A stretch of 48,253 nucleotides of DNA from Minisyncoccota bacterium (GTDB lineage: Bacteria; Patescibacteriota; Minisyncoccia; Phycocordibacterales; UBA9973), in NCBI GenBank assembly GCA_036517375.1, contig DATDWM010000021.1, forward strand, positions 1 through 48,253, read 5' to 3'. Position 1 is the first letter of the stretch, and every line of letters starts with the position of its first letter. Position numbers and translations under genes: made by a program. The notes beneath the pieces were generated by a model. It did no database searches. It had not been told where the DNA came from and worked only from the letters and a program-made list of their open reading frames with translations. Shown here piece after piece: positions 6,419-41,666 of this stretch.

Positions 6419-7447
6419 ATGGCGACAATATCTTTCAAACCAAAACAAGTTACTAAAAGAATTACTTCACATTTACATGACCGCGCTAGCGACGTCATAA
6501 TGAATCGTTTTGGTTTGACCGCTGACGGAGAAAAAAAGACTCTTGAAGAAATTGGTAAAAAATATGGCATCACTCGAGAGCGCGTTCGTCAGGTTGAAGA
6601 GGCAGCCCTCACTCTCATTAAGAAATCCGCAGCTTACAAGGCGGAACAAGCTGTTTTTGAAGAATTAAGGCAGGTAATGCACTCCTTGGGATCAATAGTG
6701 GCGGAACACGAGCTCCTACCTCATATTTCTAAAGACAAAACAATTCAAAACCATATTCACTTCTATCTAACTCTGGGTGACTTTTTCAAAAAGCATCGTG
6801 AAGATGATCATTTTCATTCCCGCTGGAGTGTGGATGACGCGTTGGCTTCCAAGGTTCATGACTCTTTGAAGAAACTTTACTCAACGCTCAAGGATGAAGA
6901 TCTTATTCCAGAAACTGAGATGATTAAAAGATTTTTCGATCAGATGAAAGACGTAGCGGATCACTATCAAACTGAAGAAATAGCCAAGAGATGGCTCGCT
7001 ATGTCTAAAAATATTAAGAAGAATCCTCTGGGTGAATGGGGTAAGGCAAGCTCACCCAACATTCGCACTCACGGCATAAAAGATTATGCTTATTTAGTGA
7101 TGAGGAAGCACGGAACCCCACTACACTTCCGAGAAGTAGCCGATGCTATTTCTAAGACTTTTAGCAAAAAGACTCATTATGCGACTTGCCACAATGAACT
7201 TATTAAAGACTCTAGGTTTGTACTCGTGGGCCGAGGTATGTATGCTTTAGCTGAATGGGGCTATACCAAGGGCACTGCGCGTGAAGTTATAACTGATATT
7301 CTAAAGAAAGAAGGACCGATGTCTAAAGAAGACGTTATAACCAAGGTTATGAAAGAAAGATATTTCAAAAAGAATACTATTCTAGTAAACCTTGTAAATC
7401 CCAAGCACTTCAGGAAAAATAAAAACGGTCTCTACGATCTAGCCTAA
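6419..7447 (+). CDS. Sigma-70 region-4-like HTH protein with C-terminal HARE-HTH-like domains
   Basis: LEEIGKKYGITRERVRQVEEAAL is a region 4.2-type HTH. The later segment KDYAYLVMRKHGTPLHFREVADAI...RFVLVGRGMYALAEWG resembles the delta-subunit/HARE-HTH fold. Confidence 0.6.
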   Translation: MATISFKPKQVTKRITSHLHDRASDVIMNRFGLTADGEKKTLEEIGKKYGITRERVRQVEEAALTLIKKSAAYKAEQAVFEELRQVMHSLGSIVAEHELLPHISKDKTIQNHIHFYLTLGDFFKKHREDDHFHSRWSVDDALASKVHDSLKKLYSTLKDEDLIPETEMIKRFFDQMKDVADHYQTEEIAKRWLAMSKNIKKNPLGEWGKASSPNIRTHGIKDYAYLVMRKHGTPLHFREVADAISKTFSKKTHYATCHNELIKDSRFVLVGRGMYALAEWGYTKGTAREVITDILKKEGPMSKEDVITKVMKERYFKKNTILVNLVNPKHFRKNKNGLYDLA

Positions 7448-21761: not shown

Positions 21762-22205
21762 ATGATAAAAGATAAAACAACAGGAAAACCTGCCCGTCCG
21801 GCAGGCGGGTACATAGAGGCAATAGGCAGAAGGAAAACTTCAACTGCACGCGTACGTATAACAAGAGCTGCCAAGGCTAGCTTCGTGGTAAACGATGCAG
21901 ATGCGAAGGAGTATTTTAAAACTGAAGAAGGACGCCGCTTAATCCAAGATCCGATAATAAAGGGCGTGGTGACGGGTAAGGAGGCTATCAAGTGGAGTAT
22001 AGAAGTGCATGTGATGGGTGGAGGAACCCACTCGCAAGCTGAAGCAATCCGTCATGGACTTGCTCGAGCTCTGGTAGAATCCGATGGAGAACTACGAACT
22101 AAACTTAAAACTCTAGGCTACCTAAAAAGAGATCCAAGAGCCAAAGAGCGCCGAAAATTCGGTCTCAAGAAAGCTCGTAAAGCTCCACAATGGAGTAAAC
22201 GATAA
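21762..22205 (+). CDS. rpsI: 30S ribosomal protein S9 (with N-terminal extension)
   Basis: GRRKTSTARVRI...GGGTHSQAEAIRHGLARAL...RDPRAKERRKFGLKKARKAPQWSKR. Confidence 0.93.
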   Translation: MIKDKTTGKPARPAGGYIEAIGRRKTSTARVRITRAAKASFVVNDADAKEYFKTEEGRRLIQDPIIKGVVTGKEAIKWSIEVHVMGGGTHSQAEAIRHGLARALVESDGELRTKLKTLGYLKRDPRAKERRKFGLKKARKAPQWSKR

Positions 22206-22223
22206 TTGATTATCGTTTACTCC
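22192..22223. repeat. 32-nt palindrome (15-bp perfect arms) spanning the rpsI stop codon
   Basis: GGAGTAAACGATAAT-TG-ATTATCGTTTACTCC. The left arm encodes the last S9 codons plus TAA. Confidence 0.85.
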
Positions 22224-22348
22224 GGTTTCGTGCAAGAGAAAATTTCCGGTGCGAGCTTGCGAGCCGGAAATAGGAGGGGATACGTGCACTGACCACGACC
22301 CACAAAATACCCCTAGAAATGGGGATTTTTTTGTGCTAAAGTATGAAT

Positions 22349-22972
22349 ATGAAAGATGAAGATGAACAAAAGCAGCCTGAAACTACAGAGTCGGAAGCGG
22401 AGTTGAGCCCAGTAGGTGATTCTACTGAATCAGACGAAGTCGTGGAATTTGAATTCAACGATGACGGTGAGGAAGACTTAAAGAAAACCCTAAAGAAGCT
22501 CCGCGCGGATTTAAAGCAGGTGAAGAAGGAAAAAGAAGAATATCTCCTCGGCTGGCAGAAGGAGCGAGCGGAGTTTGCTAATTATAAAAAAGAAGAGGAT
22601 GCTCGAAAGGCGATGTTTAGTGAAGCCATGCGCGAGAGGATTCTTACTCGATTCTTAACGGTGATGGATAGTTTCAACATGGCTTTTACCAACAAGGAAG
22701 CCTGGGAGAAGGTAGATCCAAACTGGCGCAAAGGAGTGGAATATATTTATTCCCAAATGGGAGGAATCTTCGAAGAGTACGGGGTGAAAGCCATCGGCGA
22801 AGTGGGAGACACCTTTGATCCCAATATTCATGAATCCATAGACCTAATTCCAACTGATAAAAAAGAAGACGATCATAAAATAGCTACAGTGATCCAGAAA
22901 GGCTACAAGCTAGGCGAGCGTGTCATCCGTCCAGCGAGGGTGAATGTATATGAATACAAAGGAGCAGAATAA
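22349..22972 (+). CDS. grpE: Nucleotide exchange factor GrpE
   Basis: Acidic N-terminus and the GrpE core (RAEFANYKKEEDARK...VIQKGYKLGERVIRPARVNV). TGcTAAAGT (22334-22342) lies 6 nt before ATG 22349. An in-frame ATG at 22343 is the alternative start. Confidence 0.88.
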   Translation: MKDEDEQKQPETTESEAELSPVGDSTESDEVVEFEFNDDGEEDLKKTLKKLRADLKQVKKEKEEYLLGWQKERAEFANYKKEEDARKAMFSEAMRERILTRFLTVMDSFNMAFTNKEAWEKVDPNWRKGVEYIYSQMGGIFEEYGVKAIGEVGDTFDPNIHESIDLIPTDKKEDDHKIATVIQKGYKLGERVIRPARVNVYEYKGAE

Positions 22973-24674
22973 AAATTGCCAGAACTGTAAACAAAACTTC
23001 ACGGTAGAACCGGAAGATTTTAATTTCTACGAAAAAATAAAAGTTCCAGCTCCGACTTGGTGCCCGGAGTGTAGATTCCAGCGAAGGATGAGTTGGCGTA
23101 ATGACTGGCATTTGTTTCGTAAAAAAGATGCTCGTACTGGCGAAGAGATTTTTTCATTTTTACCTGAGGAAAGCCCAGTGAAGATTTACGATAGAGATTA
23201 TTGGATCTCCGATGCGTGGGACCCCACTCGATTTGGCCGGGATTTTGATTTTACCAGGCCTTTTTTTGAACAGTTCAAGGAGTTACTTTATGAAGTACCC
23301 CTGCCTTCTCATTCAATGATAAATATAAGTAATTGTAAATATTGCACTAATGCTACAGGCATTAAAAATTGTTATTTAGTTCGGGGCGCAGGTTATACCG
23401 AAGACTCCGCGTATCTGATATGGGATCAGTATTCTAAGCTATGTTTTGATAGTCATATGACTAGTCGATGTGAATTATCTTATGGAAACGTTAATACGTC
23501 TAATTGCTATAAAACATTTTTTTCAGTTGATTGTGAAAGTTGCCAAGAAATGATTTTATCTAAAGATTGTGTTGCTTGTAATAGTTGTATTGCTTCCATA
23601 GGTCTTCGCAATAAGTCTTATTGCATTTTTAATAAACAATACACCAAAGAAGAGTATCAGAAGAAAATCATTGAATTAAATTTAGGGTCTAACGAAAGTT
23701 TTCAATCACTGAAAGCGGAAGCATATAAACACTGGCTTAAATATCCACAAAAATTTATGTATGGACGTCAAAACGTCGCAGTCTCCGGGGATTATATTTT
23801 TGAGTCAAAGAACGCAAAACACTGTTATAGAATAAGGGGGGTGGAAGATAGTAAATTTGTTCAAAATATTTTAATTGGACCAGTTCGAGATACTTACGAT
23901 GTCTCTAATTATGGAGAAAATATAGAACTTAGTTATGAATGTCTGGTTGCGGGCATCGGTGTGTCTAACGTTAAATTTAGTTTCCAAACCTATCCCAATG
24001 TAAGAAACTTAACCTATTGCATATTTTCTAGTAATGCTTTGGATTTATTTGGTTGTATTGGATTAAAGAAAAAACAGTATTGTATTTTAAATAAACAATA
24101 CTCTAAAGAAGAGTATAAAAGACTTGTGTCTAAAATAATTGAACATATGAAAAAAAACGGGGAGTATGGGGAATTTTTCCCATCCTCACTTTCGCCTTTC
24201 CCATATGAGGTAACGGCTGCAAATGAATTTTTCCCACTCACTGAAGAAGAGGCAAAGGCTAGAGGTTTCTTGTGGTACAACATCGAAAGACAAAATTATA
24301 AAATTACTTTAAATCCGGAAGATATTCCAGATGATATAAAAAATATCGATAAAGAGATTCTTGGTGAAGTTATTGGATGCGCAGATCGGGAATCTTGTGA
24401 GCATGAATGTACAGGAGCTTTTCGGGTGATAGAGGCTGAGCTTGATTTTTGTAAAAGAATGAACATCCCCCTACCTCGTCTTTGCACTAATTGCCGTCAC
24501 TACGAACGTTTATCATTAAGAAATTCACCAAGTTTTTACCATCGTGCTTGTATGTGTGATAAGAATCATACACATCATGAAGGCAAGTGTGAAGCTGAAT
24601 TCGAGACCTCATATGCTCCCGATAGGCCAGAAATAGTCTATTGCGAAAAGTGTTATCAGCAGGAAATATACTAA
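22944..24674 (+). CDS. Cys-rich multi-zinc-ribbon protein, paralog B0 (576 aa)
   Basis: The start overlaps the grpE 3' end by 29 nt. N-terminal ribbon CQNC-x24-CPEC; two internal repeats ending GL(R/K)xKxYCIxNKQY(T/S)KEEY; a second ribbon; terminal C-x17-CEKC. Paralog of 30506-32251. Confidence 0.8.
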   Translation: MYMNTKEQNKNCQNCKQNFTVEPEDFNFYEKIKVPAPTWCPECRFQRRMSWRNDWHLFRKKDARTGEEIFSFLPEESPVKIYDRDYWISDAWDPTRFGRDFDFTRPFFEQFKELLYEVPLPSHSMINISNCKYCTNATGIKNCYLVRGAGYTEDSAYLIWDQYSKLCFDSHMTSRCELSYGNVNTSNCYKTFFSVDCESCQEMILSKDCVACNSCIASIGLRNKSYCIFNKQYTKEEYQKKIIELNLGSNESFQSLKAEAYKHWLKYPQKFMYGRQNVAVSGDYIFESKNAKHCYRIRGVEDSKFVQNILIGPVRDTYDVSNYGENIELSYECLVAGIGVSNVKFSFQTYPNVRNLTYCIFSSNALDLFGCIGLKKKQYCILNKQYSKEEYKRLVSKIIEHMKKNGEYGEFFPSSLSPFPYEVTAANEFFPLTEEEAKARGFLWYNIERQNYKITLNPEDIPDDIKNIDKEILGEVIGCADRESCEHECTGAFRVIEAELDFCKRMNIPLPRLCTNCRHYERLSLRNSPSFYHRACMCDKNHTHHEGKCEAEFETSYAPDRPEIVYCEKCYQQEIY

Positions 24675-24720: not shown

Positions 24721-25239
24721 TTATTTGCCGAAAGTTTGCAATAAAACTTTAGCGGTTTCTTCATCTACGAACTCGGTGACTATTACTATCATCTCAGTCG
24801 TGAATCCTAAATCCTTTTTGATATTTATAAACAGGTGCTCGTATGGATGAGGGGAGATCCAGACGGAATTTTTCAGGCAGACGAAGTTTGCTTTCTTTAA
24901 GAGGTAGCGCAGGCTCTCGCGTTCACTCTTTCTTTGCTCTGGCAGGTCGAGCAAAATTATTCTCCAGAATCCGTCCCACTTAGTATTCACGAGTGTAGTT
25001 TCACTATCTAGCATTAGACTGTTTATTTTCTTCTTGCCTTCCCGGGTCAAGCGGGCATAGTCATTCTGCCCAGAGTATATGCTTTCTATTAACCCAGCCT
25101 CTTGTAGGCCCTTTAAGGACCTTGTAACGGCATATTTGTCTTGACCCAGATCGTTTTGTAGGTCAGGGAGGGAAATGGCTGATTTTTCGGCGAGCTTTTT
25201 TAGAATTTTCTTTCCGTATGTATTGTTTTGGCTTGACAT
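24721..25239 (-). CDS. Winged-HTH regulator with PaaX/Cas2-like C-terminal domain
   Basis: N-terminal wHTH (LPDLQNDLGQDKYAVTRSLKGLQEAGLIES). C-terminal WDGFWRIILLDLPEQRKSERESLRYLLKKANFVCLKNSVWISPHP resembles a PaaX-type effector domain. Confidence 0.5.
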   Translation of the reverse strand: MSSQNNTYGKKILKKLAEKSAISLPDLQNDLGQDKYAVTRSLKGLQEAGLIESIYSGQNDYARLTREGKKKINSLMLDSETTLVNTKWDGFWRIILLDLPEQRKSERESLRYLLKKANFVCLKNSVWISPHPYEHLFINIKKDLGFTTEMIVIVTEFVDEETAKVLLQTFGK

Positions 25240-25347: not shown

Positions 25348-27282
25348 ATGTCAAAAATCATAGGAATAGACTTAGGTACAACAAATTCAGCGGTAGCAGT
25401 TATTGAGGGTGGCGCACCGAAGATTATTGAGAATACAGAAGGTAACCGCACCACGCCTTCAATAGTCTCTATTGCAAAAAATGGGGACAGGTTGGTAGGG
25501 CTTCTGGCCAAGAGGCAGGCGGTGACGAATCCTGAAAATACTGTTTATGGTATCAAGCGCTTCATGGGGCACAATTTTGACGATCCAGAAGTACAAAAGG
25601 ATTTGAAAAATGCATCTTTTAAAATTCAAAAGGGCGCAACAGGTGGAGTGGAAGTAAAAATAGGCGATAAGTGGATGCGTCCAGAAGAAGTTTCCGCCAT
25701 GATCCTTTCTAAAATTAAAACGGATGTAGAAGCAAAGCTTGGCGAGAAGATTACTGAAGCAGTCATCACTGTACCAGCATACTTCAACGATGCGCAAAGA
25801 AAGGCAACCAAAGACGCGGGTATGATCGCGGGCCTCGATGTAAAGCGTATTATCAACGAGCCAACTGCGGCTGCACTTGCGTACGGATTTAATAAAAAGA
25901 AAAATGAAAAAATAGTTGTCTACGACTTCGGAGGCGGAACTTTCGACGTGTCAGTTCTTGAGATTGGGGACGATGTTATCGAAGTTAAGTCTACTGATGG
26001 GGACAGTCACTTGGGTGGCCGCGACATTGACCACAAGATCATTGGCTGGATTGCAGAAGAATTTAAAAAGACGTCCGGCGTGGATGTACGAGCGGACAAG
26101 CTCGCTCTTCAGCGCTTAGACGAAGCGGCAGAGAAGGCTAAGATCGAGCTCTCCACCGCAGTTGAAACTGAAATAAATATTCCATTCATTACTTCTACGG
26201 CGGAAGGTCCACAGCACTTACTGCTCAAGATGACTCGTGCCCAGCTGGAATCCATTGCAGACGAATATATTTCTCGCTCTATTGAGATCACCAAGCGTGC
26301 GATGGCGGCTTCCGGATTCAAGATGGAAGACATGAATGAAATAATCATGGTAGGTGGCCAGACCAGAATGCCGAAGATTGTGGAAGAAGTTAAGAAAGTT
26401 TTCGGCAAGACTCCGAACCTCTCCATTAACCCTGACGAAGTGGTGGCCTTGGGTGCTGCTGTTCAGGCGGGAGTATTGCAGGGGGATGTGCGTGATGTTC
26501 TACTACTCGACGTTATACCGCTATCACTTGGAATAGAAACTCTCGGAGGCGTTGCGACAAAATTAGTAGAAAGAAATACAACTATTCCGTCCAGCAAGTC
26601 GCAGACATTTTCTACTGCGGCGGACAATCAGACTTCCGTAGAAATACACATAGTCCAAGGTGAGCGTCCTATGGCCTCCGACAACAAATCCCTCGGGCGG
26701 TTTGTGCTTGACGGCGTGCCTCCAGCGCCTCGTGGTATGCCTCAGATCGAGGTGGCCTTTGATGTGGATGCCAACGGAATATTGAATGTGACTGCTAAGG
26801 ATAAAGCTTCAGGTAAAACTCAATCCATAAAGATCGAAGCTTCTTCAGGACTTAAGGAAGATGAAATTAAAAAGATGCAGGCGGATGCTGAACTTCATGC
26901 GGAAGAAGATAAAAAGAAAAAGGAAGGTGTGGACATTCGAAATACCGCTGAAATGATTATTTACACTGCAGAAAAAGCATTAAAAGATAATGAAGCCAAG
27001 ATTCCTGCGGAATTGAAAGAGAGCGTGAATCTAAAAATCGCCGCCCTCCGAGGCGCGAAAGATTTACCTGCCGGAGCGGGCGGTAATGACATAGAAACAA
27101 TAAAGAAAGCGACCGAAGAACTCTCAAATGAAATGTCTAAAATAGGGGAAGCGGTAAGTAAGAGTTCAGCTGCCTCTGGCGCGCCTGGAGATGCTGAAAC
27201 TCCACCCACAGGCGACGCTGCCAAAGCCACCGATGCGGAATTCAAAGAAACTCCGCCGGAAGGGGAAGAACCGAAAGCGTAA
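25348..27282 (+). CDS. dnaK: Chaperone DnaK (Hsp70)
   Basis: [20 protein letters not shown] and the full Hsp70 architecture. Size 644 aa. Confidence 0.97.
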
Positions 27283-27681: not shown

Positions 27682-27685
27682 AAAT

Positions 27686-27716
27686 AAAGGCCCCGAGTGG
27701 GGGCTTTTAATTTTTT
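27686..27716 (+). terminator. Intrinsic terminator (copy 1 of a near-identical pair)
   Basis: AAAGGCCCC-GAGTG-GGGGCTTTTAATTTT. Confidence 0.75.
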
Positions 27717-27796
27717 ATATATTAGGTATAATACTAAATGTAAGTGATCTTCAAAATGCTCGCGTATCCAACCGCGAGAGAAAGGGGGTAAAATCC

Positions 27797-28036
27797 ATGA
27801 ACAGACAGAAGAAAAGCGGCCGCTTTTCGTTCCCCGTCAAGAACGAGGACTTCAGAGTCTCGAGCTACAGCGATCCAGGTGGCATCATCAAGACCTGCGT
27901 CGAAGTGGCGGTGAAGCCTGAAGGTGTTGCCATCCGGGACAGCAAGAACCCGAACAGTCCCGTACTCTACTTCACGCACGAAGAGATGGCGGCCTTCAAG
28001 CAAGGCCTCGTGAGCGGCGAGTTCGACAGGGCCTGA
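27797..28036 (+). CDS. DUF397-domain protein (79 aa) on GC-rich island 2
   Basis: Hallmarks CVEVA...VAIRDSKNP..PVLYFT..E..AF..G...GEFD. RBS AAAGGGGGT lies 7 nt upstream. 63 of 79 codons end in G/C (hand count). Confidence 0.8.
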   Translation: MNRQKKSGRFSFPVKNEDFRVSSYSDPGGIIKTCVEVAVKPEGVAIRDSKNPNSPVLYFTHEEMAAFKQGLVSGEFDRA

Positions 28037-28088
28037 AGAGTGTATGCTTATCTCGTAAGTCGAGTACGACAATCTCGGCACCCACGTA

Positions 28089-28137
28089 ACGGACCGTACA
28101 GCTGCAAGCTGTCCGGTCCGTGAGTACTTCTACTCAC
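28089..28137 (+). terminator. Two overlapping GC-rich hairpins downstream of the DUF397 gene (no clear U tract)
   Basis: ACGGACCGTACAGC-TGCAA-GCTGTCCGGTCCGT (13 bp, 1 mismatch), then GTGAGTA-CTTC-TACTCAC. Confidence 0.4.
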
Positions 28138-28215
28138 ATTGCAGACTTTACGTTAAGTATTTGGTACAATTATATAAAGGCCGAGATTATTAATTTAATT
28201 GTTTATATATTTAAT

Positions 28216-28371
28216 ATGCAAAATTATCAAAAAGGAAATACCAATACTGTCTTGATTGTAGTCGTACTTTTGCTTCTTGTTGGTTTCGGAGTATGGTGGT
28301 TCACCATGCGCAACGAAGCAGTAGATAATGATGGAGGAGTAAACATACAGCTAGGTGGGGATAGTCAATAG
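28216..28371 (+). CDS. Small single-pass membrane protein (51 aa)
   Basis: MQNYQKGNTNTVLIVVVLLLLVGFGVWWF... Start chosen at the first Met before the TM helix; the ORF track begins at 28120 inside the upstream hairpin. Confidence 0.45.
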   Translation: MQNYQKGNTNTVLIVVVLLLLVGFGVWWFTMRNEAVDNDGGVNIQLGGDSQ

Positions 28372-28398
28372 TAGGAGTTAAGTTTATGTTCTAAAAAT

Positions 28399-28428
28399 TA
28401 AAGGCCCCTTAGTGGGGCTTTTAATTTT
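28399..28428 (+). terminator. Intrinsic terminator (copy 2 of the near-identical pair)
   Basis: AAAGGCCCC-TTAGT-GGGGCTTTTAATTTT. Confidence 0.75.
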
Positions 28429-28437
28429 GTACTTTTC

Positions 28438-28446
28438 TGGTACAAT
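28438..28446 (+). promoter_or_regulatory. Extended -10 TGgTACAAT, 8 nt before ATG 28455
   Basis: The same TGGTACAAT motif also occurs at 28155-28163. Confidence 0.5.
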
Positions 28447-28454
28447 TTATATAT

Positions 28455-30506
28455 ATGGATCTGCCGCAAATACCTATCAATAGAGAGATAACTTATCTGG
28501 GCATTACTACCTATCGGGACAAGAACCAACTCTTCGGCATCAAGCGCAAGGACAGGCGTCAGCATGTTTATATTTTAGGAAAGTCTGGTACTGGTAAGTC
28601 CGTGCTCATGTTCAACATGATCATTCAAAATATTATAAACGGTGAAGGCGTTTGCGTAGTGGACCCGCACGGGGAGCTAGTCGAGGGTGTACTCTCTGCT
28701 ATTCCGCCGCACCGCATGAAGGACGTAATTTATTTTAATCCCGCGGATACGGACTTCCACATTGGATTTAACGTGCTAGAGCTAGTGGATCCGCAGTACA
28801 AGCACTTAGTGGCTTCTGGACTCATGGGAATCTTTACGAAGATCTGGGCCAATGCCTGGTCCGCCCGAATGGAATATATTTTAAATAACTGTATTTTAGC
28901 CTTGCTCGATACTCCTGGCACCACACTCCTAGGTATTCCTCGAATGCTGGTGGATAAGGATTACCGCCAGAAAATAATTTCTAATTTGAAAGATCCGGTG
29001 ATAAAGGCCTTCTGGGTGCATGAGTATGAAGCCTGGCAGGATAAATTTCGAAATGAAGCCATCGCGCCGATTCAAAACAAAGTAGGTCAATTCCTCTCTA
29101 CTTCAATCATTCGAAACGTGGTGGGCCAGTCCAAGAGCACCATCAACATTTTCGACATTATGAACGAGAGCAAGATTTTCCTAGTTAACGTCTCTAAGGG
29201 GCGCATCGGGGAGGACAACTCTGGGCTACTAGGCGGAATGATAATTACTAAAGTCCAGCTCGCAGCTATGGAGCGTGTGCGTATACCAGAAGAAATTCGA
29301 AAGGACTTCTATTTATATGTGGACGAATTCCAGAACTTCGTGACGGACGCCTTTGCGGGGATTTTATCTGAGGCTCGTAAGTATCGCTTGAACCTGACGG
29401 TGGCGCACCAGTACACGGCTCAGCTTATCTCCGACAAGAGCTCAGCTGTGCGTGATGCTGTCTTCGGCAACGTGGGTACGATGATAATTTTCCGAGTGGG
29501 TGCAGACGATGCGGACTTTTTAGAAAAAGAGTTCGAGCCGGAATTTACTCCGCAAGACATTGTGAACTTGCCGAACTATAAAATATACCTGAAGCTCATG
29601 ATAGAAGGCGTTACGTCTAGGCCTTTTTCCGCTAAGACTCTACCGGCGATGGTAAAGTCTGGCAATAAAGAAGTGGAGGACGAAGTTATCCGTTCTTCGC
29701 GTGAGTTGTACTGTCTGCCGAAAGACGTTATTGAGCGAGAAATAAACAACTGGAGCGGGATGTCTTTAGGCAACGAGAGTGACGTCACGAGTAGTAGTGT
29801 GGAGAGATTTAAAGCAGTGTGTTCGAATTGTGATAAGGAAACCACCGTACCCTTTGCGCCTACGCCTGGCCGGCCGGTGTACTGCAAGGAATGCATGGAG
29901 AAAATAAAATCCGGAGAACTTAAGGTGAAAGGATCTGTCAAAGAAATCAAAATGGATGAAGGCAGATTTTACAAACCTTTGGCAGACTTAGGAATAGAAT
30001 TTGCGCAGAAGGATGCCGACGGAGAGAAGATAGTGCGAATGCCAATGCCAGATAAACCGAAAGTGGTAAGTAGCGTAATGAATAAATTTAAGCCGCCAGT
30101 CAAGAAAGAAAATTTTGCGCTCCGGGATATTTTAAATAAAATTACGAGCGCGGGTGGGACCCCGCCGCCTTCAGTAGCGAAAGTAGTTACTCCGGTGCTT
30201 GCTCCAGCACCTGCGGCTATTTCCCTGGGAGATTTGAAAAATAAAGTTAAAACAGAAATCCCAAAGGATCGCGCGGCAAGCCATGCAGATATGAATAAGC
30301 TTAAAGATTTAATTCAAGAAAAAACCTTATCTACTTCTCCCGTGGCCCCGCCCGCTGTGCAAGCCCAAGCTCAAGTAGAAACTCCACCGCCACCAAACAT
30401 TCCAACTCCTCAAGCTCCTCCTAAAACTCCGCCCTCCGCGAGCAACGGGACGAGTAAAGTGAAAGAAGTCCCAGAAGATGTATTGAAGAAGATACTCGAA
30501 GAGTAA
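28455..30506 (+). CDS. TraD/VirD4-like (FtsK-HerA superfamily) P-loop NTPase A1 with CxxC-x17-CxxC ribbon and Pro-rich tail
   Basis: Walker A GKSGTGKS, Walker B FYLYVDEFQNF, and SEARKYRLNLTVAHQY. C-terminal CSNC-DKETTVPFAPTPGRPVY-CKEC, then a low-complexity P/A/Q tail. Confidence 0.75.
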   Translation: MDLPQIPINREITYLGITTYRDKNQLFGIKRKDRRQHVYILGKSGTGKSVLMFNMIIQNIINGEGVCVVDPHGELVEGVLSAIPPHRMKDVIYFNPADTDFHIGFNVLELVDPQYKHLVASGLMGIFTKIWANAWSARMEYILNNCILALLDTPGTTLLGIPRMLVDKDYRQKIISNLKDPVIKAFWVHEYEAWQDKFRNEAIAPIQNKVGQFLSTSIIRNVVGQSKSTINIFDIMNESKIFLVNVSKGRIGEDNSGLLGGMIITKVQLAAMERVRIPEEIRKDFYLYVDEFQNFVTDAFAGILSEARKYRLNLTVAHQYTAQLISDKSSAVRDAVFGNVGTMIIFRVGADDADFLEKEFEPEFTPQDIVNLPNYKIYLKLMIEGVTSRPFSAKTLPAMVKSGNKEVEDEVIRSSRELYCLPKDVIEREINNWSGMSLGNESDVTSSSVERFKAVCSNCDKETTVPFAPTPGRPVYCKECMEKIKSGELKVKGSVKEIKMDEGRFYKPLADLGIEFAQKDADGEKIVRMPMPDKPKVVSSVMNKFKPPVKKENFALRDILNKITSAGGTPPPSVAKVVTPVLAPAPAAISLGDLKNKVKTEIPKDRAASHADMNKLKDLIQEKTLSTSPVAPPAVQAQAQVETPPPPNIPTPQAPPKTPPSASNGTSKVKEVPEDVLKKILEE

Positions 30507-32251
30507 TGAAACAGGAAATAAAAAACTGTCAGAATTGCAAACTAGACTTCACGATAGAACCGGAGGATTTTAATTTCTACGAAAAAATAAAGGTTCCGCC
30601 TCCGACATTTTGTCCACAGTGTCGGGTTATGCGCAGATTAACTTGGCGCAACGAGCGTTCCTTGTATCACAATGTTTGCGCCCTTTCGGGCAAGAAAATA
30701 ATTTCCATGTTTTCACCAGAAACTAAACTAGTGGTTTACGATCGAGATATTTGGTGGAGCGACAAATGGGATCCATTTGATTATGGGCAAGACTACAACT
30801 TCTCTAAGCCATTTTTCCAGCAATTTAAGGAGCTCCTAGAAAGGGTGCCACTTGCCAACTTAGGTAATACCAATATGGTAAATAGTGATTATGCCAATCA
30901 TAGTTTGGATTGCCGTAATTGTTATTTGATATATGCTTCCACATGGAATGAAAATGTATCTTACTCTACAGGAGTAATGCGTACGAAAGACTCCATGGAT
31001 CTTTATAAAGTTCAGAATTCAGAACGATGCTATGAAGATGTTTTAAATGCTAGCCTTTTCAACACTCATTTTAGTTACGATAGTGATGAATGTATTGATT
31101 CCATGTTCCTAACTTCATGCCTTGGGCTAAATAACTGTTTGGGTTGCGTGAACTTACGTCATAAAAAATACTGTATTTTTAATCAGCAGTATTCAAAAGA
31201 AGATTACGAAAGAGTCCGAGAAACCTATGACTTAGGTAGCTACATAGGTCTGGAGAAATTTAAGCCGGAGTATGCAGAATTTCTAAGTAAACAATTTAGG
31301 AGATATGCTTTTATCTACAAATCTATAAATGTTACAGGAGACAATGTTATGAACTCTAGAAACTGTAAAATGGTATTTGATATTTTTGAAGAAGCTGAGA
31401 ACTCTAAATACCTTTATCATGGCGGATACGGAATTAAAGAAAGCTATGATGGATATGGAACCGGCCTCAGAACAGAATTTTTATATGAAAGCGTGGATAC
31501 AGGTCTAGATGGTTCAAGGCAACTCTTCTCCATTCTTAATCATAGCTGTTTAGAAACTCACTATACTTATATGTGTTATGGTGCCAAATTCTTATTTGGT
31601 TGCGTGGGAGTTCGAGACCATGATTACTCTATTTTAAATAAAAAATATACTAGAGAAGAGTACAAGGAACTTCTACCTAAGGTCGTACAGCACATGAATG
31701 ACATGCCATATGTTGATGAGCAGGGTAGAGTCTATAAATACGGAGAGTTCTTCCCGATGGAACTTTCACCATTTGCTTATAATGAAACCATTTTGCAAGA
31801 ATATTACCCATTAGATAAAAAAAGAGTAAAAGAATATGGTTTAAAATTAAAAGAAAAAGAGCACAGAGATTATAAAATTGAAGTAAAAACAGATGACTTA
31901 CCGGACCATATCAAGGACACTCCAGAGAGTATTGTGGGTAAAGTAATAGAATGCATACACAAAGGTGAGTGTGAAGAGCAGTGCACAGAAGCATTTAAAA
32001 TCAGGCCGGAAGAATTGCAATTTCTTAAAAAAATAAATGTAGCTCTGCCCCGCCTTTGTCCCAATTGTAGACATTTTGCAAGATTAAAACAAAGAAACCC
32101 TATGAAACTTTGGCACCGTCAGTGCATGTGCGACAAGACTAGTCATCAGCACGGAGAAGCAAGGTGCCAAGTGGAATTTGAAACAAGCTATGCTCCGGAG
32201 AGGCCGGAGATAATTTATTGTGAAAAGTGTTATCAGAAAGAGGTGTATTAA
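30506..32251 (+). CDS. Cys-rich multi-zinc-ribbon protein, paralog B1 (581 aa)
   Basis: The ATG shares one base with the A1 stop (TAATG). Same architecture as 22944-24674; ends ...C-x17-CEKCYQKEVY. Confidence 0.8.
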   Translation: MKQEIKNCQNCKLDFTIEPEDFNFYEKIKVPPPTFCPQCRVMRRLTWRNERSLYHNVCALSGKKIISMFSPETKLVVYDRDIWWSDKWDPFDYGQDYNFSKPFFQQFKELLERVPLANLGNTNMVNSDYANHSLDCRNCYLIYASTWNENVSYSTGVMRTKDSMDLYKVQNSERCYEDVLNASLFNTHFSYDSDECIDSMFLTSCLGLNNCLGCVNLRHKKYCIFNQQYSKEDYERVRETYDLGSYIGLEKFKPEYAEFLSKQFRRYAFIYKSINVTGDNVMNSRNCKMVFDIFEEAENSKYLYHGGYGIKESYDGYGTGLRTEFLYESVDTGLDGSRQLFSILNHSCLETHYTYMCYGAKFLFGCVGVRDHDYSILNKKYTREEYKELLPKVVQHMNDMPYVDEQGRVYKYGEFFPMELSPFAYNETILQEYYPLDKKRVKEYGLKLKEKEHRDYKIEVKTDDLPDHIKDTPESIVGKVIECIHKGECEEQCTEAFKIRPEELQFLKKINVALPRLCPNCRHFARLKQRNPMKLWHRQCMCDKTSHQHGEARCQVEFETSYAPERPEIIYCEKCYQKEVY

Positions 32252-32274: not shown

Positions 32275-33741
32275 ATGCCTAAGCCAAATCGAGTCCAGAT
32301 AATAAAATACGCTCCGCCACCACCAGAACTTCCAGTTTTTGGGAAAGTAAAACCCGAGGACGTTTCTTTTATTGGCCGGACGAATTACGTGGCATCGCTC
32401 GAAGAAAAGAAATTTATTTTCGGCATAAAGCGCGTGGACCGTCGCAGACACCTTTATATCATCGGTAAGTCCGGAGTCGGGAAGACCAAGCTTCTAGAGC
32501 TTTTCATCCGCCAAGACGTGAGCTACGGACATGGATTGTGCCTAATTGACCCGCACGGAGACGTGATAGATGCCATGCTTGACTACATACCGAGGGAGCG
32601 CATAGAAGACGTGTGTATCATTGATCCCTCCGACATTGATTTCCCAGCTTCTTTCAATCCTCTCGCGAACGTAGACCCCATGTTTAAATTCCAGCTCACT
32701 CAGGGGCTCATAGAAGTCTTCCAGAAACAGTTCGGCGCCAACTGGACTCCGCGCCTGGAGCACGTTTTCCGCTTTACGTGTCTGGCGCTCCTCGACTATC
32801 CGCATGCTACTATGCGCGGCATGATTTCAATGCTGACTGATCGAAACTATCGCCAGAAGGTAGTAGAGTACATTACAGACGACATGGTAAAAAGATTCTT
32901 CGCTATCGAATTCGCCGACTGGTCCGAGAAGTTCGACACTGATGCTATCATTCCATTGGTGAACAAGCTCGGACAATTCCTCTCGGATCCGCTTCTCCGT
33001 AACATCTTCGGACAGAAAGAAAACAAAATAGACGTAAGTAAACTCATGAACGAAAAGAAAATAATTTTCATCAATCTCTCGAAGGGTCGCCTAGGGGAGG
33101 AGAATTCGTCTTTCTTGGGTTCTATGTTTCTGACTAAAATAAAACAAGCTGGTATGGAGCGCGCGGCCATTCCAGAGAAAGATCGAGTAGATTTTTATCT
33201 TTATGTGGACGAGTTTCAGAACGTGGTAACGCAGACATTTGAAAATATTTTATCCGAAGCTCGCAAATACGGACTCAACTTAACCATCGCGCATCAGTAC
33301 GTGGGACAAATTCTTCAGAAGGTGCATCAGGCGGTATTAGGAAACGTGGGCTCTGTTATAACCTTCCGGGTGGGTGGGGAAGACGCAGTAAAATTGAAGC
33401 CAGAATTCTCCCCAGTCTTCGACGTGAAAGATATGATCAACCTAGCGGTAACGGAATTCTATATTAAAATGACTATTGATGGAGAGTCTTATGATCCATT
33501 TTCCGCAGAGACACTTCGAGTTCTGCCACCACCTCATGCTTCGTACCGGGAGGAAGTAATTGCTTCCTCACGCCAAAAATATTCTATCCCGAAGGATGCG
33601 GCCGCGAAGCTTATTGCTGAAGAAGAATCAACTATTATCCGCAGCGCGGAGGAGAAGTCTATCATTGAAGGTAAAGGCAAGAAAGGGCAAGATTCAGAGG
33701 ACAAAAAAGAGGATAGCCTTGAAGCGGAACCTATGATATAA
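32275..33741 (+). CDS. TraD/VirD4-like P-loop NTPase A2 (paralog of A1, no zinc ribbon)
   Basis: Walker A GKSGVGKT, Walker B FYLYVDEFQNV, and SEARKYGLNLTIAHQY. Acidic/Lys-rich C-terminus. Confidence 0.75.
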   Translation: MPKPNRVQIIKYAPPPPELPVFGKVKPEDVSFIGRTNYVASLEEKKFIFGIKRVDRRRHLYIIGKSGVGKTKLLELFIRQDVSYGHGLCLIDPHGDVIDAMLDYIPRERIEDVCIIDPSDIDFPASFNPLANVDPMFKFQLTQGLIEVFQKQFGANWTPRLEHVFRFTCLALLDYPHATMRGMISMLTDRNYRQKVVEYITDDMVKRFFAIEFADWSEKFDTDAIIPLVNKLGQFLSDPLLRNIFGQKENKIDVSKLMNEKKIIFINLSKGRLGEENSSFLGSMFLTKIKQAGMERAAIPEKDRVDFYLYVDEFQNVVTQTFENILSEARKYGLNLTIAHQYVGQILQKVHQAVLGNVGSVITFRVGGEDAVKLKPEFSPVFDVKDMINLAVTEFYIKMTIDGESYDPFSAETLRVLPPPHASYREEVIASSRQKYSIPKDAAAKLIAEEESTIIRSAEEKSIIEGKGKKGQDSEDKKEDSLEAEPMI

Positions 33742-33748: not shown

Positions 33749-34822
33749 ATGAGTAAAGACTATTATGGAGTTCTGGGCGTTAATAAAGAGGCTTCCAAGG
33801 ACGAAATAAAGAAGGCCTTTTATAAGCTGGCGCATAAATATCATCCTGACAAAAAGGATGGCGACGAGGCTAAATTCAAGGAAGTAAACGAGGCCTATCA
33901 AGTGCTCTCGGATGAAGACAAGCGCTCTAAGTATGACCAATTCGGTAGCGCCGACGCACAAGGCTTTGGTGGCTCGCAGTCTGGATTTGAGGGCTTCGAC
34001 TTCTCTGGATTTCAGAATGGTGGGGCGGACTTTGACTTTGGAAATTTAAATGACATTTTTAGTGATTTCTTTGGTGGGGGCGGAGGTAGAACTCAAGCGC
34101 GCCGTGGACGAGACATTTCTACTGAAATTCAGATTTCTTTTTCGGATGCAATTTTCGGTACAAATCGCAAAATTTTAATTACCAAAACTTCTAATTGTGT
34201 TACCTGTAACGGCTCCGGGGCCAAGCAAGGCTCTAAGATGGAGACGTGTAAGTCATGTAACGGCCAGGGGCAGATCCGGGAGATGAAGCGTACCATCCTA
34301 GGTAGTATCTCGAGCACCAAGGTGTGTGAGAGCTGTCATGGGAAAGGAGAAGTGCCAAAGGAGATTTGTGAAAAGTGTAAAGGCAAAGGCGTGCTCCGCC
34401 AGGAGGAAGAAATTTCCATCGTGGTACCAGCTGGAATTCGGGATGGTGAGATGATCCGGATGACCGGACACGGGGAGGCAGTGTCACACGGAACCTCGGG
34501 CGACCTTTATATCAAAATAAATGTAGCTCCACATGCAATGTTTAAGCGTGATGGGCATGACTTGGTGATGAATTTAAACTTAAAACTCTCAGACGCTCTT
34601 CTAGGAACAAAGCATAAAGTTGAAACTCTAGATGGGGAGATAGAAGTAACAATTCCCGAGGGCGTATCAATCAATGAAATTCTCCGCGTCCGCGGCAAGG
34701 GTGTGCCAGTGTCAAAAAATAAAAGAGGCGACCTCTTAATAAAACTCAATATCAAACTCCCTAGCAAGCTGTCCAAGAAATCTCGCGAGCTCATCGAAGA
34801 GATGAAAAAAGAAGGAATATAA
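33749..34822 (+). CDS. dnaJ: Co-chaperone DnaJ (Hsp40, type I)
   Basis: J-domain with HPD (KYHPDK), a G/F region, and four CxxCxGxG zinc motifs. Confidence 0.95.
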
Positions 34823-41033: not shown

Positions 41034-41666
41034 TTACTCGTTAAAGTTTAACCATTCAAAAAGCTCGTTCTGGTGATCAGTGGGATTCTTGAAATATAGA
41101 GGAAATTCTATGGGATTCGTGACTTCAAACTTGTTGTCTAAGTATTCTTTCAAACTCGAGTATTGATATTGAAATATATACTCTAGAAGCTTAGTAACAT
41201 TTCTATCTGCTTTATCTCTCCAATTTTTATCTATTATTTTGGCTGGGTTCAGGTGTATGTAGGAATAAAGATATTTTAAATAATTGTCTTTTTCTAGGTG
41301 AGTTGATTTAAATACGCCCTCATATAATTTACCAGTTCTTTTATATTTTTTATTAAAGTACATTGAGTATCCAGTCAACAACTTACGCATGTATGTAGAT
41401 ATACCACTTTCAACTTTTTCACGGACAAGAATGTGAAAATGGTTTGACATCAAACAGTATGCCCCAATATCAATTATTGTTTCTCCACGATCAAAATTTT
41501 CATCAATATGTCTTAGTTCAATACTCTTCTTGCTGTTGCAGATGTACATTAAAAACAAAAAATGTCGATAGTCTTTTTTATCTAAAAATATAATTCTTTT
41601 TTCTGTGCCACGGTTATACAAATGATAGTATTCGCCGGTTGCAAAAGATTGTTTTCGTAAAGCCAT
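41034..41666 (-). CDS. HUH Y1 tyrosine transposase (REP-associated RayT / IS200-like)
   Basis: YHLYNRG N-terminus, HUH motif NHFHILV, and the catalytic Tyr region YSYIHLNPAK. Confidence 0.8.
   Translation of the reverse strand: MALRKQSFATGEYYHLYNRGTEKRIIFLDKKDYRHFLFLMYICNSKKSIELRHIDENFDRGETIIDIGAYCLMSNHFHILVREKVESGISTYMRKLLTGYSMYFNKKYKRTGKLYEGVFKSTHLEKDNYLKYLYSYIHLNPAKIIDKNWRDKADRNVTKLLEYIFQYQYSSLKEYLDNKFEVTNPIEFPLYFKNPTDHQNELFEWLNFNE

Follow-up and report, generated by a model that had tools for sequence, protein, structure and literature searches.

The window analysed here is a stretch of 48,253 nucleotides (contig DATDWM010000021.1), in which a gene that we call B0 begins inside the 3' end of grpE. 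The window, part of a Patescibacteria (candidate phyla radiation, CPR) genome, is a housekeeping region by a gene-family scan of its open reading frames (ORFs). On the + strand, clpB, bipA, alaS and other housekeeping genes are followed by rpsM-rpsK-rpsD-rpoA-rplQ-rplM-rpsI and then grpE; from there on the order is grpE, B0, a PaaX-like gene (- strand), dnaK, a TfoX_N gene, NTP1, B1, NTP2 and dnaJ. B1 is a paralog of B0, and we refer to both and their homologs as the B family. Loci of relatives are cited by their survey numbers (L). The grpE-B0 part of the window contains the following features.

22343-22972, + strand: grpE, 209 aa (PF01025, E 2e-37); its last 8-10 codons contain the B0 start
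22936-22972, + strand: coupling region as read from the sequence, with GAGG at 22936-22939, ATG at 22944, ATG at 22950 and the grpE stop TAA at 22970-22972
22944-24674, + strand: B0, 576 (or 574) aa, in the order ZnA, linker, R1, R2, linker, ZnA', ZnB
22977-23102, + strand: ZnA, residues 12-53, C12xxC15...C40xxC43 followed by a basic helix, R44-x2-R47R48-x3-R52N53
23328-23678, + strand: R1, residues 129-245, first variable Cys-rich repeat, ending in GLRNKSYCIFNKQYTKEEY
23781-24137, + strand: R2, residues 280-398, second repeat with many short beta-strands, ending in GLKKKQYCILNKQYSKEEY
24378-24524, + strand: ZnA', residues 479-527, duplicate of ZnA, C479...C489...C514xxC517 R518
24549-24653, + strand: ZnB, residues 536-570, C536xC538...C549-x17-C567xxC570, terminal treble-clef-like tail

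The 576-aa ORF that the initial annotation had placed 29 nt inside grpE was present on the + strand, in another frame than grpE. The second in-frame ATG, at 22950, is the start in the database gene call (P0001, 574 aa), and its position is homologous to the start in relatives (MNTK, MNTE, MNSK or MSTK); an overlap of 23 nt is therefore likelier than one of 29 nt. The initial annotation also stated that no promoter or Shine-Dalgarno sequence intervenes. This was right for the promoter, since the sole promoter-like match inside grpE (9/12) was no better than shuffled sequence, but not strictly for the Shine-Dalgarno sequence, because a GAGG precedes ATG 22944 by 4 nt and ATG 22950 by 10 nt. The GAGG was not conserved in relatives, and no terminator-like site was found between grpE and B0. 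The grpE C-terminus (...RVNVYEYK) is conserved in relatives, where B genes form arrays: the first array gene overlaps grpE by 26-41 nt in L002, L045, L081 and L082; in L166 the overlap is 26 nt. A B start codon is thus embedded in grpE in at least six genomes, the window included. The overlap, the conserved start position and the lack of a terminator-like site make the proposed co-transcription of B0 with grpE plausible, and the first array gene is probably translated by termination-reinitiation. The overlap itself is an ordinary operon feature.

Architecture of B0 and its resemblance to known proteins

B0 and B1 aligned end to end with 41% identity (E 1e-164), in line with the paralogy proposed earlier, and all motifs quoted for B0 were found: C12QNC15...C40PEC43, GLRNKSYCIFNKQYTKEEY at 220-238, GLKKKQYCILNKQYSKEEY at 372-390, a second ribbon C479...C514xxC517 and the terminal C549-x17-C567EKC570. 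Analysis with hhalign indicated two internal duplications, aligning the N-terminal zinc module (13-61) with a C-terminal one (487-535) at a probability of 98.5%, and R1 with R2 at 99.8%. B0 is a soluble, cytoplasmic protein with 32 Cys residues; it is net acidic (80 D+E vs 74 K+R), and no transmembrane segment was detected (maximum Kyte-Doolittle hydropathy over 19 residues, 1.33).

An AlphaFold2 model of B0 built from a 137-sequence alignment (pLDDT 83.4, pTM 0.84) replaced an 18-sequence run that was weak in the repeats (pLDDT 68). The model begins with the N-terminal zinc module, a beta-hairpin followed by helices, one of which (41-49) comes after the second CxxC of ZnA. A helical linker leads to two repeats built from short strands and turns, with a 'KEEY' helix at the end of each; a linker, the copy of the zinc module and the zinc tail follow. 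C12, C15, C40, C43, C489, C514 and C517 were invariant in the 137-sequence alignment. Among 207 full-length paralogs, C12, C15, C40, C43, C479, C536, C549, C567 and C570 were at least 93% conserved, with the ZnB residues Cys 536, 549, 567 and 570 at 98% or more. R44, R48 and R518, which come after the second CxxC of each module, also reached at least 93%, as did a Cys and an Asn that occupy matching positions in the two repeats (C215/N230 and C371/N383). Conservation in this set was lowest in the central repeats, above all in R1 (about 0.49).

Thousands of full-length homologs exist, which places B0 far beyond a chance ORF. A neutral, non-functional insertion was considered and rejected on the grounds of intact ORFs, orthologs with 70-77% identity and dozens of invariant alignment columns. 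B0 is a functional gene whose product has two related treble-clef-like zinc modules bearing basic helices and a terminal C-x17-CxxC tail; its central, duplicated and variable repeat is probably solenoid-like.

The zinc modules resemble small domains of uncharacterised function, which cover about 150 of the 576 residues. ZnA is similar to PF13451 (zf_Tbcl): the N-terminal module scored 16.6 bits (E 0.0078), below the gathering cut-off of 24 bits, and full-length B0 gave no match to this family. The homologs P0055 and P0118 passed the cut-off (24.5 and 25.3 bits), and 5 of 18 family members matched at E <= 0.01. B0 carries the ligand pattern of PF13451, that is, four conserved Cys in two CxxC pairs and a helix after the second pair. 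The B0 tail scored 16 bits (E 0.0099) against PF23477 and gave no match to TIGR04272 (zf_Tbcl_2; cut-offs 27 bits for PF23477 and 36 for TIGR04272). Its first Cys pair is CxC (C536xC538), and hence it does not have the CxxC-x17-CxxC spacing. Apart from this pair, the PF13451 and PF23477/TIGR04272 modules are like B0 in Cys spacing, and the hidden Markov model matches are weak (E 0.008 and 0.01). In a Foldseek search against BFVD, the only matches were viral models named 'putative zinc-ribbon domain', which aligned over about 41 aa with an rmsd of 0.7 Å, to a module that the output does not specify. Zinc binding is established for small archaeal CxxC-x17-CxxC proteins, and it was suggested that they take part in transcription (PMC12704099).

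The rest of B0 resembled nothing in these searches: the core (120-400) and the regions 60-120 and 400-475 had no match. Pfam, NCBIfam and PADLOC scans of B0 and B1 returned nothing above threshold, PADLOC thus giving no defence-system component, and a PDB sequence search with the 137-sequence profile gave 0 matches at E <= 10. Foldseek found no significant match of the B0 model in the PDB. Its top matches were all left-handed beta-helix proteins (gamma-carbonic anhydrases, LpxA, CcmM), and these were insignificant (E at least 4.9, probability at most 0.03, TM-score at most 0.21). Such hexapeptide-repeat proteins are like the B0 repeats in their predicted short strands and turns; B0 had no match to the Hexapep Pfam families and is not placed among them. 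B0 resembles the Hsp70 co-chaperones DnaJ and GrpE in its position in a grpE-dnaK-dnaJ locus and, for DnaJ, in its CxxC zinc sites. It differs from them in lacking a J-domain, CXXCXGXG repeats and a GrpE fold: Pfam and NCBIfam scans, including fragments at E <= 10, detected no J-domain, GrpE/BAG-type exchange domain or DnaJ CXXCXGXG zinc centre in B0 or B1. The literature searched, including that on a VirD4-DnaK link in CPR, contained no mention of the B family. As far as these tools and searches show, the B family and its pairing with the orphan VirD4-like ATPases described below have not been reported before.

The B family and the NTPase pair

The B family comprises at least 7,966 clusters at 90% identity. 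At 50% identity it comprises at least 4,626 clusters with E <= 1e-3, of which 2,012 have E <= 1e-30. Sources that name these proteins always call them 'hypothetical protein'. Of the 80 genome records with titles, those that gave a lineage were all Patescibacteria, except one labelled Gammaproteobacteria; the lineages were Nomura-, Paceibacterota, Lipton-, Staskawicz-, Jorgensen-, Sungii- and Magasanikbacteria, together with third-party annotation records labelled Saccharibacteria. The latter are metagenome-assembled genome (MAG) records (L003, L009, L010 and others) titled 'uncultured Candidatus Saccharibacteria', and the Gammaproteobacteria title belongs to L080; both kinds of title are probably automatic mislabels.

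We surveyed the context of B genes in 80 B-anchored genome loci and clustered the neighbouring genes in 82 loci. Two or more full B copies were present in 46 of the 80 loci, and 211 full copies were counted in 1.3 Mb. The densest array held 12 B-family matches in 21.8 kb (L036), followed by 9-10 in L054 and L072, and one MAG (JAKAKW01; L039 and L073) carried at least 12 full-length copies in two loci. Adjacent B genes on the same strand (129 pairs) were separated by a median of 53 nt. Paralogs within an array were only 30-50% identical.

When all ORFs in the 82 loci were clustered, a single NTPase family, of TrwB/VirD4/HerA-like type, emerged as the recurrent neighbour (70 genes in 38 loci). 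The other neighbours were dnaJ (10 loci), dnaK (9), paaX (9) and grpE (6), and the remainder were scattered housekeeping genes. In the window, this NTPase family is represented by NTP1 and NTP2, which flank B1 as follows.

24721-25239, - strand: PaaX-like helix-turn-helix regulator (PF20803, E 1.6e-19), convergent with B0 and divergent from dnaK
25348-27282, + strand: dnaK, by its translation; relatives are 77-96% identical, and the L081 ortholog has PF00012
27346-27681: TfoX_N (competence-regulator N-domain) gene, between dnaK and NTP1
28455-30506, + strand: NTP1, a soluble TrwB/VirD4-like P-loop NTPase (PF10412, PF02534, PF01935, PF23477, TIGR04272)
30506-32251, + strand: B1, paralog of B0, with a start that overlaps the stop of NTP1 (TAATG)
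32275-33741, + strand: NTP2, paralog of NTP1 without the zinc finger, 45% identical to NTP1
33749-34822, + strand: dnaJ (PF00226, PF00684, PF01556)

The second copy that the initial annotation had assigned to an NTPase unit was thus found, B1 lying between dnaK and dnaJ within NTP1-B1-NTP2. The NTP1 stop runs into the B1 start in a shared TAATG (30504-30508), and 23 nt separate B1 from NTP2. TAATG is a classic coupling overlap and a tighter link than that of grpE and B0. Where a locus held both NTPases, they bracketed B genes in 17 of 19 cases, as counted from the 80-locus survey; L164 is a further example.

NTP1 and NTP2 exceeded the Pfam cut-offs for TrwB_AAD_bind, T4SS-DNA_transf and TraG-D_C, with 36.7 and 27.8 bits for PF10412 (cut-off 20.5) and 30.2 and 28.7 bits for PF02534 (cut-off 20.1), and TrwB was their nearest PDB sequence. 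NTP1 also carries a CxxC-x17-CxxC finger at residues 450-484, which matches PF23477 (54.5 bits, E 9e-15) and TIGR04272 (55.6 bits). The same PF23477-type finger is found strongly in NTP1 and weakly in the B tail. The two NTPases have the P-loop domain of type IV coupling proteins (T4CPs; VirD4, TrwB, TraD) but differ from these in having neither a membrane anchor nor linkage to a type IV secretion system (T4SS), and in forming a conserved paralogous pair inside housekeeping operons. No transmembrane anchor was detected in either NTPase (19-residue hydropathy maxima 1.44 and 0.95, neither peak N-terminal), no signal peptide was found in B proteins or NTPases, and none of the window ORFs scanned was a VirB4, relaxase or T4SS channel gene. 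PADLOC matched the NTPases weakly and generically to mad8 and HerA (E 1e-13 and 1.5e-7). NTP2 was 65-90% identical over the Patescibacteria loci sampled, which favours a core function.

The ATPases of T4SSs and type VII secretion systems (T7SSs) recognise C-terminal signals of paralogous substrates, as the EccC/EssC motors do with Esx proteins. B paralogs likewise combine a conserved C-terminal tail with variable bodies, and by analogy the tail is compatible with a substrate signal bound by a coupling ATPase; no counterpart of B proteins is found among known T4SS substrates. A 2025 survey of CPR genomes counted 5,713 VirD4-type homologs in 2,918 genomes, about two each, with only 148 of them near virB4 (10.1101/2025.01.22.634366). 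Its authors left their role open and did not rule out exaptation. NTP1 and NTP2 are probably the same proteins as these orphan homologs.

Other observations were made around B arrays. A CutA1 (divalent-cation tolerance) gene adjoined NTP2 or B arrays in 10 of the 82 loci (e.g. L011 6150-6464 and L164 5677-5982), and a metal link with the Cys- and Zn-rich B proteins is possible. In L163, the array adjoins FtsK and a 750-aa TrwB-like gene, and a nucleotidyltransferase/HEPN pair (6606-7374) lies just upstream of it. In the window, the 774-nt stretch between the TfoX_N gene and NTP1 (27682-28454) has no convincing ORF; it holds only an 83-aa ORF with a GTG start (one hydrophobic segment) and a 115-aa antisense ORF, and gave no Rfam match. 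The TfoX_N gene is also downstream of dnaK in L096.

B genes in the hsp70 locus

A second survey was anchored on grpE instead of B; loci were counted as close relatives if their grpE was 64% or more identical to that of the window and was followed by at least 800 nt of sequence. Recurrence of the grpE-B adjacency had been set beforehand as the test of the initial annotation, and it passed: B directly followed grpE in 38 of 43 close-relative loci, and mostly began within it. In the other 5, grpE led straight to paaX. Where grpE was less than 64% identical, B followed it in 0 of 8 loci, and the distant loci with enough sequence read grpE-(paaX)-dnaK-dnaJ. The adjacency is therefore clade-wide yet clade-restricted. 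In this Nomurabacteria-like clade, the hsp70 locus holds a B array, placed after grpE and before paaX/dnaK, and an NTP1-B-NTP2 unit that separates dnaK from dnaJ; distant relatives have neither. Since distant relatives keep contiguous hsp70 genes with no B, we infer that the ancestral hsp70 locus was contiguous.

Within the clade, the number of B copies between grpE and paaX/dnaK ranged from 0 to 5, with truncated remnants in L087, L090, L107, L110 and L117. The PaaX-like gene marks the downstream limit of the grpE-proximal array, a position kept in relatives. L082 keeps the grpE-B array though dnaK is not nearby. Outside the clade, only two B loci of about 69, L056 and L061, had an hsp70 gene within 10 kb, which by a rough estimate is about the chance level for a random 20-kb window in a genome of less than 1 Mb. 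Linkage of B with hsp70 genes in several independent lineages was not found.

The copy that adjoins grpE in the window is the counterpart of the last, not the first, array gene of relatives. Over its full length, B0 shared 72-73% identity with the gene that ends the array in L081 and L082, but only 28-33% with the first gene of these arrays, which overlaps grpE. In L165 and L166, too, the B0 ortholog is the final gene before paaX and has another B gene ahead of it; the L002 ortholog follows NTP1, not grpE. In relatives, the last copy belongs to an array of 2-5 copies, and the window is the only sampled locus with a B0 ortholog directly after grpE. The B0 start (ATG 22950, MNTK...) nevertheless occupies the position of a first-copy start, inside the conserved NVYEYK-coding end of grpE. 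B0 shares with the first copies the start position only, about the first 8 codons. A chimera with a first-copy-type N-terminus was tested and, over residues 1-60, rejected: this stretch had 73-74% identity with the last copy, compared with 28-29% with the first. The simplest account would be a deletion from the 5' end of the first copy to that of the last, which would have joined the B0 body to the grpE-embedded start. Short homology for such a deletion is available, because the L081 last copy begins M-A-Y-M-N-K. The array of the window genome would thereby have collapsed to a single gene.

Several other features of the locus were observed. The rpsI-grpE spacer (22195-22350) is unusually structured (minimum free energy -48.7 kcal/mol, z -3.7 vs shuffles). 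An 11-bp stem spans the rpsI stop, a long inverted repeat lies at about 22243-22272, and a hairpin with a T-run at 22311-22334 ends 9 nt before the grpE ATG; the spacer matched no Rfam family and could be a terminator, an attenuator or a thermosensor. A PaaX_M/winged-helix regulator gene stands upstream of dnaK, in divergent orientation, in nearly all relatives (L144, L147, L148, L151 and many others), even distant ones without B. No CIRCE (controlling inverted repeat of chaperone expression) element was found in the window, and the PaaX-like protein may be the heat-shock regulator of these lineages, replacing HrcA. Elsewhere in the window, an IS200-like Y1 transposase ORF (41034-41666, - strand; PF01797, E 3e-7) sits among housekeeping genes and adjoins recR, and one tRNA was the sole match of the Rfam scan.

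A proposed role for the B family and the alternatives

The descriptive part of our account, namely the gene, its architecture, the conservation of its zinc ligands, the tandem amplification, the NTPase neighbourhood and the clade-specific placement in the hsp70 locus, is held with high confidence. As an overall explanation, we favour a B family partnered with the NTPase pair and linked to Hsp70 by its operon, and we give this about an even chance of being right. More tentatively, and with somewhat less than even expectation, B proteins may be adaptor or substrate subunits of an NTP1/NTP2 motor, a proposal drawn from gene neighbourhood and from an analogy with the reading of C-terminal signals by coupling ATPases. 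Both the array and the NTPase unit would have been inserted into the ancestral contiguous hsp70 locus, where the first array gene would be co-transcribed with grpE and then translated by termination-reinitiation. B proteins would be interchangeable on the NTPase pair: their conserved zinc termini, with a C-terminal finger in common with NTP1, would dock on the motor or on nucleic acid, and specificity would differ between paralogs through their variable central repeats. The link to Hsp70 would then consist in shared expression from a strongly expressed, stress-inducible operon, rather than in a demonstrated client or co-chaperone relation.

Several points weigh against this explanation. The partnership of B and the NTPases is drawn from gene neighbourhood, and co-transcription and coupling with grpE are read from sequence. 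No NTPase was present within 10 kb in 43 of the 80 B loci, so that many copies lie apart from one, and the zinc-finger type shared with NTP1 stays below the Pfam threshold in B0. The grpE-B adjacency is strongly retained within the clade, and B genes occupy the hsp70 locus at two separate positions, which goes beyond what one random insertion predicts and leaves room for a real Hsp70 connection.

Such a connection, in which B proteins would be clients, adaptors or regulators of DnaK-DnaJ-GrpE kept in the hsp70 locus by selection, is what the initial annotation had suggested. It would account for the adjacency in 38 of 43 close relatives, for the start codon inside grpE in at least six genomes, for the grpE-B array that L082 retains without dnaK nearby and for the presence of B genes both between grpE and paaX and between dnaK and dnaJ; large Cys-rich repeat proteins would also plausibly be chaperone-dependent. 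The support is however synteny in a single clade. Within it, 5 of 43 loci have lost all copies at the site, copy number varies from 0 to 5 with pseudogene remnants, and the L002 ortholog of B0 follows NTP1. The adjacency is absent from all 8 distant relatives, and linkage outside the clade (2 of about 69 loci) is close to the estimated chance level. With the NTPases as the family-wide partner and no match to a J-domain, a nucleotide-exchange factor or CXXCXGXG repeats, the suggested functional tie did not hold up, and we regard it as unlikely. Equally unlikely, in our judgement, is a conflict or host-interaction family that diversifies fast, with a HerA/VirD4-type NTPase driving defence proteins, immunity proteins or epibiont-host effectors. 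Tandem paralogs that are only 30-50% identical, rapid gain and loss with gene fragments, and central repeats that vary most between conserved termini would suit such a role, as would the weak NTPase matches to mad8 and HerA, the HEPN/nucleotidyltransferase pair beside one array (L163) and the reading of C-terminal signals of paralogous substrates by T4SS and T7SS ATPases. These genes, however, stand in housekeeping operons, not in islands; B0 and B1 had no PADLOC match, neither B proteins nor NTPases had a signal peptide or transmembrane segment, T4SS channel genes were not found among the window ORFs scanned, and the 65-90% identity of NTP2 looks like that of a core gene rather than of a defence gene.

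B proteins might instead bind nucleic acids independently of the NTPases, for instance to process or regulate DNA acquired through competence, and their position would then be due to neutral hitch-hiking. This reading is favoured by the three zinc modules, with invariant Arg-rich helices (C43-R44-x2-R47R48-x3-R52N53 and C517-R518) after two of them, by the TfoX_N gene between dnaK and NTP1, and by the zinc binding and suggested transcription role of the small archaeal proteins (PMC12704099). The NTPase bracket in 17 of 19 loci is nevertheless too regular for independence, no known DNA- or RNA-binding domain was found at threshold, and B0 is net acidic; we consider this the least probable of the readings discussed here.

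The favoured partnership with the NTPase pair can be extended to the family as a whole. It is possible, though rather doubtful, that B arrays and the orphan VirD4-like pair make up an undescribed core cytoplasmic machine of Paceibacteria-type Patescibacteria, in which a soluble TrwB-like motor would be served by a large, evolving repertoire of zinc-finger/solenoid adaptors or cargo, and which in one clade would be wired into the heat-shock operon. The genomes of Patescibacteria are tiny, yet some devote tens of kilobases to the B family. The overlap with grpE is a smaller point, namely that in one clade the array would be read from the heat-shock operon, and grpE-B0 would be a clean example of array collapse by deletion. 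If true, the core-machine proposal would explain what roughly two orphan T4CP homologs per CPR genome do. The link between B proteins and NTPases thus offers a concrete, testable hypothesis for an unnamed family and for the unexplained VirD4-like ATPases alike.

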